In this document: positions 18,031-18,815 of the stretch, piece after piece
Layout of the letters: each line of letters begins with the position of its first letter
Position numbering within the stretch: the stretch's first letter is position 1
IMG/VR virus record: IMGVR_UViG_2579778622_000004
Reading direction: 5' to 3' (one strand)
Origin: a virus
Lineage: Duplodnaviria; Heunggongvirae; Uroviricota; Caudoviricetes
DNA length: 39,867 nucleotides
Notes under the pieces: model-generated
Seen by the model: only the letters and a program-made list of their open reading frames with translations
Databases searched by the model: none
Told to the model about the DNA's origin: nothing
Translations under genes and position numbers: made by a program

Positions 18031-18815
18031 GCCGCATTCACCGCAACGGAAAGAGCATTCTTGGTGGACCTGTAGATTGGGATATGAACCCGTTACAGGA
18101 GAATGCTCTTACCTGTTACGTGCTCCGTTTCGTGGAGCTAACGGCGGGTGATCGGGCCGCACCAGGCTGGACTTATTTCAGCGTTATGCTCATGCCAGAG
18201 AATCAAACTGTGATGGTCGGTGCTGAACTCCGACACAGGGTTGTAGCAAGCCCCGCAAAGCGCGCACTACTGTAGTTGCGGCACATCAGCCTGTGCATTC
18301 ACCACAATGTTGAGAACACTGGTTGTCACGCTGCAACGCAACATTTATTCGTAGATTGGGATATGACCCCGTTACGCCAGTGTTCTCAACGTTGTAGTGC
18401 CGGTTACGGTTCCGGCCAGGCCTCTTCCTCAACGGGGTGTTCTCCATACGGACTACCGTTTATTGGTCGTTCCTGCGGTTTATGTTGTGAAGCCAGATGC
18501 TTATCTTCTGGTTGCTTCAAAGAGCTGCACTTCATCACAACGGTAAGAGCACTCGATGCATTTAAGCCAAGCCCCATAAGGGAGAATGCCCTTACCTGTT
18601 GTGTTGTGATGACCGGTGCTGATCTCCGGCTTGCGGTTATTTCAGACTCTCACGGGCGTTTAATTGCCCCGCCGAACAGCTCTTTTCCGCAATAGCTGCA
18701 ATGTCTTTCGCGCATCAGCCTGCGCATTCATCACAACGGTAAGGGTACTTCGTAGGGATTCGAACCCTCTGCCAAGCTCGGCGATCTCCGACGTCGCAAA
18801 ATACCCTTACCTGTT
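18031..18815. repeat. Cluster of long imperfect inverted repeats (four units here, a fifth at 19176..19262) with tRNA T-arm-like cores
   Basis: Left arms GCATTCA(C/T)C(A/G)CAA(C/T)GGTAAG(A/G)G... at 18034, 18293, 18525, 18721; right arms ...CCCTTACCTGTTGTG at 18097, 18371, 18575, 18795; cores GGGATTCGAACCC / GGGATATGAACCC. Confidence 0.5.

Follow-up and report, generated by a model that had tools for sequence, protein, structure and literature searches.

The window analysed here is the whole 39,867-nucleotide stretch of the IMG/VR virus record IMGVR_UViG_2579778622_000004, which belongs to a P1-like phage-plasmid, its positions 17900-19400 being 99% identical to the phages JL22, RCS47 and P1. 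In the P1 annotation the homologous region is part of the ban operon, which is transcribed from the minus strand in the order C1-controlled promoter P1ban, 'dicF-like region', trnA (Asn), trnT (Thr), plp, upl, tciA-tciB-tciC, trnI and ban, with plp and upl drawn as plus-strand genes opposite to the operon. A preliminary description had reported an array of tRNA-like long inverted repeats between tRNA-Thr and tciA. This array is non-coding and belongs to the ban-operon transcript, read from the minus strand, in which tRNA-Asn and tRNA-Thr are followed by four units and then by tciA, each unit consisting of a long hairpin (H) and a closed structured module (S), and a fifth H is located upstream of the tRNAs (Table 1). 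By homology with a hairpin of the Escherichia coli Qin prophage, the H hairpins are probably RNase III processing stems that release the tRNAs, the S RNAs and the downstream mRNA.

The hairpin units are real and lie where they had been placed before. A repeat search recovered two direct-repeat families of four copies each, one for each arm (D1 and D4), with matching inverted repeats (I1, I2, I5 and I11), and a covariance model of H (R1, built from 53 family members) found exactly five copies in the window, H1 to H5. They scored 42.7-60.2 bits on the minus strand and 26-36.5 bits in the opposite orientation, and no further match in the 39.9 kb exceeded 10 bits. Since H1-H5 were included in the training alignment, the information in this result lies in the difference between the strands and in the lack of any further copy. 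Folded as minus-strand RNA, all five form hairpins of -37 to -52 kcal/mol, beyond what shuffled sequences give (z = -3.75 to -5.66), and each gains 5-15 kcal/mol over the fold of the opposite strand. This difference points to G-U pairs and hence to an RNA read from the minus strand, on which tRNA-Asn, tRNA-Thr and the ban operon also lie. The 928-nt minus-strand RNA from tRNA-Thr to tciA, folded as a whole, kept the four hairpins in its minimum-energy structure as well as in its centroid structure (z = -7.7). The minus-strand consensus of H is CACAAC-A-GGUAAGRGCAUUN ... NAGUGCYCUUWCC-GUUGUG. Its conserved stem, described earlier as 12-18 bp long, has 19 bp and one bulged A in all five copies and encloses a variable interior of 29-56 nt; H2 corresponds to the inverted repeat I1 (23 nt, 91% complementary).

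Table 1. Features of the H and S array and its surroundings in the window.
Feature	Position	Strand	Evidence
H1, interior with T-arm-like GGGUUCAUAUCCC	18040-18122	-	H model 60.0 bits; fold z = -3.75
H2, 23-bp stem, interior with T-arm-like GGGGUCAUAUCCC	18301-18398	-	H model 48.4 bits; fold z = -5.66
H3, interior CCCUUAUGGGGCUUGGCUUAAAUGCA	18534-18605	-	H model 60.2 bits
H4, interior with D-arm-like hairpin, 13-nt linker and canonical T-arm (GGGUUCGAAUCCC)	18730-18820	-	H model 59.5 bits; -43 kcal/mol, z = -4.57
H5, upstream of tRNA-Asn, without S module after it	19175-19259	-	H model 42.7 bits (plus strand 27.7); -47.7 kcal/mol, z = -4.55
S1, STnc100-like, leader of tciA	17923-18047	-	Rfam STnc100 28.9 bits, E = 6e-4; fold z = -3.47
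S2, type-A S module	18207-18308	-	Anchor sequences; fold
S3, short, atypical S module	18484-18541	-	Sequence; fold closes with GUUGUGA/UCACAAC, z = -0.8
S4, closed module GUUGUGAUGA...UCAUCACAAC	18603-18737	-	Sequence matches; predicted post-cleavage fold, 9-bp closing stem
Plus-strand open reading frames (upl and plp in P1)	17946-18275, 18276-18695	+	P1 annotation
tciA (TerB-like), first protein gene downstream of the array	17466-17891	-	Open reading frame list; P1 annotation
tRNA with CAU anticodon	17116-17191	-	ARAGORN and Rfam
tRNA-Thr (UGU), encoded CCA end abuts H4	18820-18895	-	ARAGORN; Rfam 72.9 bits; sequence read
tRNA-Asn (GUU)	18898-18973	-	ARAGORN; Rfam 74.5 bits
Small hairpin GCUCCACGAAACGGAGC directly upstream of H1	18122-18138	-	Sequence; context survey
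tmRNA-like tag module (P1 'dicF-like region')	19345-19446	-	Rfam tmRNA_permuted 26.1 bits, below 47-bit cut-off
Intrinsic-terminator-like hairpin and U-run, after the P1ban promoter region and before the RNA array	19447-19469	-	Consensus scan

The hairpin alone, taken before as the repeated unit, is too small, the alternating S modules having been missed. The true repeat is H+S, with units 196-261 nt apart, and each of H1-H4 runs straight into its S module. The conserved 'left arm' of the preliminary description fuses the 3' arm of H with the start of S (GUUGUGRUGAAUGC...). From this start the S layout continues with a 5' hairpin and a 3' hairpin up to the end YCAYCACAAC, and the two ends are complementary and covarying (GUUGUG/CACAAC, GUUGCG/CGCAAC, ..GAUGA/UCAUC..). 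A kink-turn or C/D-box reading of GUGAUGA...CUGA was ruled out, the closing helix of S being fully Watson-Crick.

S appears to be related to a known RNA family. The S1 alignment covers positions 31-147 of the 206 in the STnc100 model, with a score below the 47-bit cut-off, and its homologues scored 39.6 bits in phage D6 and 48.8 bits, full length and above the cut-off, in Klebsiella phage K751. The modules S2-S4 gave no match with this model; they form a type A subtype (GCGCAGGCUGAUGCGC ... GCCGGAGAUCAGCACCGGC) that Rfam does not detect, and S4 contains two hairpins with mutually complementary loops. S shares with STnc100/PasD (RF02076) the closing helix (..GGUGAAU...CACC..), the 5' hairpin and the 3' hairpin (GGGAGGCACCC in type B), and their phage locations agree as well, with Q, lysis or TerB-like genes close to the moron or leader regions that hold them. 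Canonical STnc100, in contrast, has its own TTGAC-type promoter-like sequence and terminator and lacks H, while the S modules of the window are embedded, each preceded by H, with no promoter-like site found by the consensus scan. This arrangement is as expected if H supplies the 5' end of S by processing. STnc100 and the related PasD are prophage sRNAs, and PasD has been detected by Hfq RIL-seq (Zhu, Shabalina and Storz 2026, doi 10.64898/2026.05.13.724894).

The two plus-strand open reading frames that run across the repeats had been judged non-coding, and the comparison of P1-like relatives bears this out. Substitutions showed no codon-position bias (12/17/11 at the three positions in the first frame and 15/14/19 in the second), the ratios of non-synonymous to synonymous changes were 32:8 and 30:16, two changes create stops, and 10 of the 13 indels shift the frame, including a 1-nt deletion common to 12 relatives. 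The tciA control behaved as coding sequence, with seven of its eight substitutions at third positions (7 synonymous, 1 non-synonymous) and no indels. It is true that P1 and JL22 annotate Upl and the 'putative lipoprotein' Plp here, and that the first frame matches the PHROG families 7444 and 14500, both of unknown function, with no PHROG match for the second frame or P1 Plp. However, the boundaries of these frames differ between records that are 99% identical, Pfam gave no match for either of them, and a consensus scan found no promoter-like site at 17000-19750. In addition, tRNA-Thr is the sole feature under full-length matches in RefSeq E. coli records, and plasmid gene tables list no coding sequence here. 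That upl and plp are protein-coding genes, as P1 annotates them, is practically inconceivable; judged by these substitution spectra, coding by the two frames is excluded, and two long-standing spurious genes drop out of the P1 annotation.

Outside the window, the H-S junction pattern and an independent 5'-arm pattern were each found at 120 or more loci in IMG/VR, and a junction pattern was also present in 25 species genomes, almost all from Enterobacterales. Units of the H+S type are carried by P1-like, lambdoid (including Stx), T1-like and Ackermannviridae phages. Annotated carriers include the lambdoid phages mEp460 and Stx2a_1447, with H+S downstream of cI on the same strand, as well as T1-like Klebsiella phages and a Uetakevirus. 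The Felix-O1-like phage Moogle has an H3-like hairpin inside a tRNA array, with a shorter stem and without S module. In the commonest lambdoid setting the Q antiterminator stands on one side and the holin, lysozyme and Rz genes on the other, often with a terminator-like T-run directly before the unit, so that lambdoid H+S units, to judge from this setting, sit inside long read-through transcripts. By these pattern searches, the H family is widespread in enterobacterial phages and uncatalogued: no Rfam 15 family was matched by H in the window, text searches found no description of it as a family, and its breadth, its hypervariable interior and its array layout together with tRNAs appear to be new. 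Rfam scans of 19 further H-bearing loci revealed almost no known RNA family beside H. A conserved protein partner was also searched for, and the neighbours were just ordinary lambdoid late genes (Q, holin, lysozyme, Rz, RusA/NinG-like) and P1 genes, with no nuclease, reverse transcriptase or recombinase specifically linked to H in this survey.

Two small hairpins recur upstream of H. Of 135 unique phage contexts, 23 have the element GCUCCACGAAACGGAGC immediately before H, and the second one, CCUSGGAAGAGACSAGG, resembles a boxB element. A put-type or nut-type antitermination role, suggested by the mEp460 and Stx2a_1447 units downstream of cI beside boxB-like hairpins, was considered and dropped, as the same units are present in P1, T1-like and virulent phages.

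The stem is conserved as a paired RNA structure. Over 53 diverse H units, 93.6% of the stem cells are paired, versus 60% or less in slid registers, and changes on both sides of the pair were found at 10 of the 19 positions; the covariation seen was matched by none of 500 shuffles. A U-U mismatch (36 of 53 sequences) and one bulged A are conserved. In the 58 unique arm pairs, G-U pairs number 97 and A-C mismatches 16, and all 38 H-S junctions located within 600 nt of a tRNA lie on the strand of that tRNA. H directly follows the CCA of tRNA-Thr in the window and of tRNA-Ser in D6, and directly precedes a tRNA in some other loci. The earlier proposal of a structured-RNA family on the tRNA strand is therefore upheld by compensatory stem changes, strand specificity and co-orientation with tRNAs.

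The modules are also mobile relative to each other. The S4 core, with 98% identity, is found behind at least four unrelated H interiors, showing that modules reassort, and segments of lambdoid and T1-like phages are 98% identical to S4. P1 lacks exactly one 196-bp unit relative to the window, and the number of units varies by whole units. These facts, together with conserved arms around unrelated interiors and the tRNA-Ser of D6 standing exactly at a module junction, could suggest a DNA-level element, either with ends like those of a miniature inverted-repeat transposable element (MITE) or an attC-like hairpin site that shuffles tRNA genes and S modules. The integron core site is RYYYAAC/GTTRRRY, and the CACAAC/GTTGTG of H comes close to it. 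Nevertheless, GCACAAC and GTTGTGS are one position off the core in each arm, the excess of G-U over A-C and the strict tRNA co-orientation indicate selection on one transcribed strand, and ordinary homologous recombination between repeats accounts for copy changes by whole units. No flanking target-site duplication was seen by inspection, the downstream flank being the constant S start and the upstream flank being variable, and interiors are not conserved among copies (about 35 types), although transposases and integrases were not searched for specifically. A DNA-level element is thus a very improbable explanation.

Three observations of the same kind concern particular loci. In D6 the tRNA-Ser(UGA) is inserted exactly between the end of S and the start of H (locus L005, 1638-1724, minus strand). 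In Ro157c2YLVW an extra tRNA-Tyr is present between tRNA-Asn and tRNA-Thr (L004, 2408-2494, minus strand). The S4 core (18603-18743) is 96-98.6% identical across P1-like plasmids, Stx2 and other lambdoid phages (downstream of cI) and a T1-like Klebsiella phage (L003 2501-2637, L130 3001-3137 and L131 3001-3149); as the flanks are unrelated, recent horizontal exchange of a 137-nt RNA module is suggested.

The function of H can be approached through a homologue in E. coli K-12. The H model matched the Qin prophage at NC_000913.3 1649171-1649258 (L377 19172-19259; 26.9 bits, E = 1.6e-5), where a hairpin between ydfC and dicF, upstream of dicF, carries a compensatory A-U to C-G stem change. The small RNA DicF comes from processing of the polycistronic dicBF RNA, its 53-nt form being produced by RNase E (Faubladier 1990; Ragunathan 2023), and the 5' end of a 190-nt form is made by RNase III; an rnc mutant lacks this form (Faubladier et al. 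1990, J Mol Biol 212:461; Ragunathan et al. 2023, doi 10.1101/2023.04.14.536235). Since the 53- and 190-nt forms share the 3' end 1649434, the 5' end of the longer form falls at about 1649245, which is inside the 3' arm of the Qin hairpin (CGUGCG|CUUCCGG), beside the invariant pairs of the family. The H stem of about 20 bp, or some two helical turns, also fits the RNase III valley, which accommodates about 22 bp of double-stranded RNA (PMC6212723). Of the three functions offered in the preliminary description (tRNA mimics, processing signals and decoys for tRNA-targeting nucleases), processing signals are favoured because the homologous dicBF hairpin holds a known RNase III site, and mimicry applies to some interiors alone.

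In the proposed mechanism, host RNase III would cut both strands near the middle of the H stem. The upstream RNA, tRNA-Thr for instance, would keep a 3' trailer of about 16 nt for exonucleases to trim, the hairpin top would be excised as a small structured RNA, and the downstream S RNA would gain a 5'-monophosphate end six nucleotides before GUUGUG. With the 5' arm of H gone and no longer holding it, GUUGUG would be free to pair with CACAAC at the 3' end of S, which could then close on itself (a 9-bp terminal helix is predicted); all four predicted post-cleavage RNAs, S1-S4, fold with a closing stem. Carried over by alignment from the Qin site, the predicted cuts are 18744|18743 in H4, 18548|18547 in H3, 18315|18314 in H2, 18054|18053 in H1 and 19190|19189 in H5. 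That the P1 copies are cut, where exactly the cuts fall, how S refolds and what the S RNAs do is inferred.

Several points weigh against RNase III processing as the explanation. The Qin match is modest, and the Qin cut was calculated from the RNA length instead of being taken from the published primer-extension result (813/814 as the authors number it). The sequence of the H stem is conserved beyond the known needs of RNase III, and three of the four S modules fold no better than shuffles. Some interiors are kept across unrelated phages, an example being the H3 interior CCCUUAUGGGGCUUGGCUUAAAUGCA in T1-like phages and in Moogle, which suggests further functions. Finally, the array region is not needed for P1 lytic growth (PMC10695390).

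Some of the same properties would suit uncleaved structural elements, such as insulators, exonuclease stabilisers, or pause or termination signals. The hairpins are very stable, a U-rich tract follows H5, and 40 of the 135 unique contexts stand just after a terminator-like T-run. This explanation seems improbable, however, as H1-H4 are followed by no U-run, the terminator scan called none of the five hairpins, the Qin homologue lies at an RNase III-dependent end, and a pure roadblock would need no sequence conservation in the middle of the stem.

Hairpins processed by RNase III are already a known kind of element, and H, read as a processing stem, can be compared with several of them. The Qin site upstream of DicF is likewise a long hairpin in a polycistronic prophage transcript, its arms match the H model, and the dicBF operon also has an S-type module, in the dicF-dicB spacer; it differs in being a single copy that releases DicF instead of S, in having no adjacent tRNA and in not having been described as a member of a family. 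With the RNase III signals of T7 and the processing stalks of rRNA operons, too, long transcripts contain stems of about 20 bp whose cutting separates functional RNAs, and internal mismatches or bulges tune the cleavage. They show no detectable sequence relationship to H, and they are not known as conserved scaffolds with hypervariable interiors or as elements common to unrelated phage families. The Correia elements of Neisseria and the enterobacterial ERIC elements also have conserved inverted arms and form RNA hairpins in transcripts, the Correia hairpins being RNase III substrates. Their interiors are, however, conserved within the family, they have target-site duplications and their copies are scattered over the chromosome, whereas H has unrelated interiors, no duplication was seen and its copies stand at specific RNA-gene junctions in phages.

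Two further observations were made in Qin and related phages. The unannotated dicF-dicB spacer of E. coli K-12 (L377 19458-19585; NC_000913.3, about 1649457-1649584) is an STnc100-like S module; it is homologous to S1, and the D6 module that precedes tciA is almost the same sequence, which indicates that dicB and tciA share a conserved structured leader. A second H-like hairpin of Qin (L377 11165-11226, minus strand, 30.3 bits) directly precedes the holin gene essQ, in the same late-leader position as in active lambdoid phages.

The interiors of H are hypervariable, and 69 unique ones, of 25-96 nt, fall into about 35 unrelated types. The T-arm-like hairpins reported before at 18756 (GGGATTCGAACCC) and 18079 are present, and a further one lies at 18359. 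A canonical T-arm with a UUCRANY loop is found in H4, with variants in H1 and H2 (UUCAUAU and GUCAUAU) and none in H3 and H5. H4, described earlier as a minihelix lacking the D-arm, has in fact a D-arm-like hairpin and a T-arm, and it is the anticodon arm that is missing; the same layout, with a 4-bp D-arm-like hairpin whose 9-nt loop contains GG, a 13-nt linker and the T-arm, is seen in the interior type of the loci L075 and L123, and one other type has two T-arms. Considering the whole set, T-arm-like hairpins are present in 13-19 of the 69 interiors, the strict pattern in 13 versus 0.08 expected from shuffles; this share, about 160 times chance, marks the T-arm as a real recurrent cargo but not as the defining feature of the family.

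As a general description, 'tRNA-like' does not hold. No H unit was called by ARAGORN, which found tRNA-Met, tRNA-Thr and tRNA-Asn in the window and nothing else. A cmscan search at E<=10 over 17850-19650 gave no tRNA (RF00005, 29-bit cut-off), tRNA-Sec or YrlA match on any H unit, the sole YrlA match (25.6 bits versus a 69-bit cut-off) corresponding to the two genuine tRNAs. At relaxed threshold, Rfam scans of the H units revealed no ribozyme family, DicF, tRNA or YrlA, and the hits obtained (mir-142, mir-5985 and mir-465) were rejected as long-hairpin artefacts. Compared with the tRNA-like domain of tmRNA, mascRNA and the bacterial Y RNA YrlA (RF02553), in which a Ro-binding stem joins a tRNA-like domain, H shares the T-arm in H4, H1 and H2 and, in H4, the D-arm-like hairpin, with a long closing helix as in YrlA; it differs in matching neither tRNA nor YrlA models, in having no free acceptor end or CCA, and in the absence of the T-arm from most members.

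Mimicry of tRNA as the purpose of H would mean that an interior T-arm or elbow mimic, presented by the long stem, titrates or recruits tRNA-binding factors, for which TrmA, TruB, the CCA-adding enzyme, RNase P and tRNA-targeting defence nucleases are candidates. The excess of canonical T-arms, their combination with D-arm-like hairpins or with a second T-arm, and the position of the units among genuine tRNA genes would agree with this, and it would be compatible with excision of the hairpin tops by RNase III. Nevertheless, around three quarters of the interior types have no T-arm and are mutually unrelated, and what is conserved family-wide is the stem and not the interior. Together with the negative tRNA searches, this makes mimicry or decoy function unlikely as the explanation of H.

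A combination of both ideas would treat H, cleaved as a processing stem, as an RNA expression cassette. The tops excised by RNase III would then be hypervariable, recombining cargo RNAs that include tRNA-elbow or T-arm mimics with no anticodon arm (H4, H1, H2), possibly acting as decoys or recruiters for host tRNA-binding enzymes or tRNA-targeting antiphage nucleases, and with the tag module described below they would make up an island of translation-mimicking RNAs common to unrelated enterobacterial phages. We regard this as a speculative extension that is unlikely to be correct.

If H is a conserved RNase III cassette, such processing would be common in the phages of Enterobacterales: in P1-like plasmids, lambdoid prophages (those with Stx among them), T1-like phages and Ackermannviridae, and a Felix-O1-like phage has an H3-like hairpin as well. 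In Gram-negative bacteria the biogenesis of sRNAs by RNase III is documented for few cases, namely DicF, GlnZ and ManS (PMC11745405). Processing at H would also account for the release of embedded STnc100/PasD-type RNAs, and of phage tRNAs, from long read-through transcripts. The RNAs flanked by H are mostly uncharacterised, and H itself is absent from Rfam 15.

The tmRNA-like tag module upstream of H5 contains the frame ...AAGUAAAU GCA AAC GAU GAU CUG AUG AUG GUA GCG GCC UAA, which encodes ANDDLMMVAA and a stop, with GCA as the resume codon. In K751, Moogle and T1-like phages the homologous modules have other nucleotides and keep SsrA-like tags (ANDNTFLAVA, ANDNVFLAVA, ANDEQFLAVA and ANDDVVLMAA). 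ARAGORN called no tmRNA acceptor piece in 45 enterobacterial tag-module loci; among other viral loci with the same tag start, it called 49 of 111 as permuted tmRNAs. Relatives of the module lie at about 3190-3250 in L006, about 2640-2680 in L008 and 2659-2766 in L007, each of them on the minus strand. Several lineages have an H hairpin about 90 nt downstream of the tag module.

In K751 (Ackermannviridae) a 3.3-kb unannotated stretch (L006 800-4137, minus strand) adjoins tRNA-Met and tRNA-Trp. Besides a tag module and a unit of the H+S type, it holds a full-length STnc100, several weaker H-like hairpins and a tRNA-like minihelix that ARAGORN does not call.

The terminator-like element at the upstream border of the array has an 8-bp stem followed by TTTTTTTT with eight U residues. 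The position of the P1ban promoter was taken over from the P1 annotation, and because this strong terminator-like hairpin lies upstream of the array, the tRNAs and ban, their expression would need read-through. Elsewhere in the window, Rfam matches above cut-off were obtained for the sok antitoxin RNA and the C4 antisense RNA (36139-36313 and 39770-39855, both on the minus strand), which are ordinary in P1-type phages.

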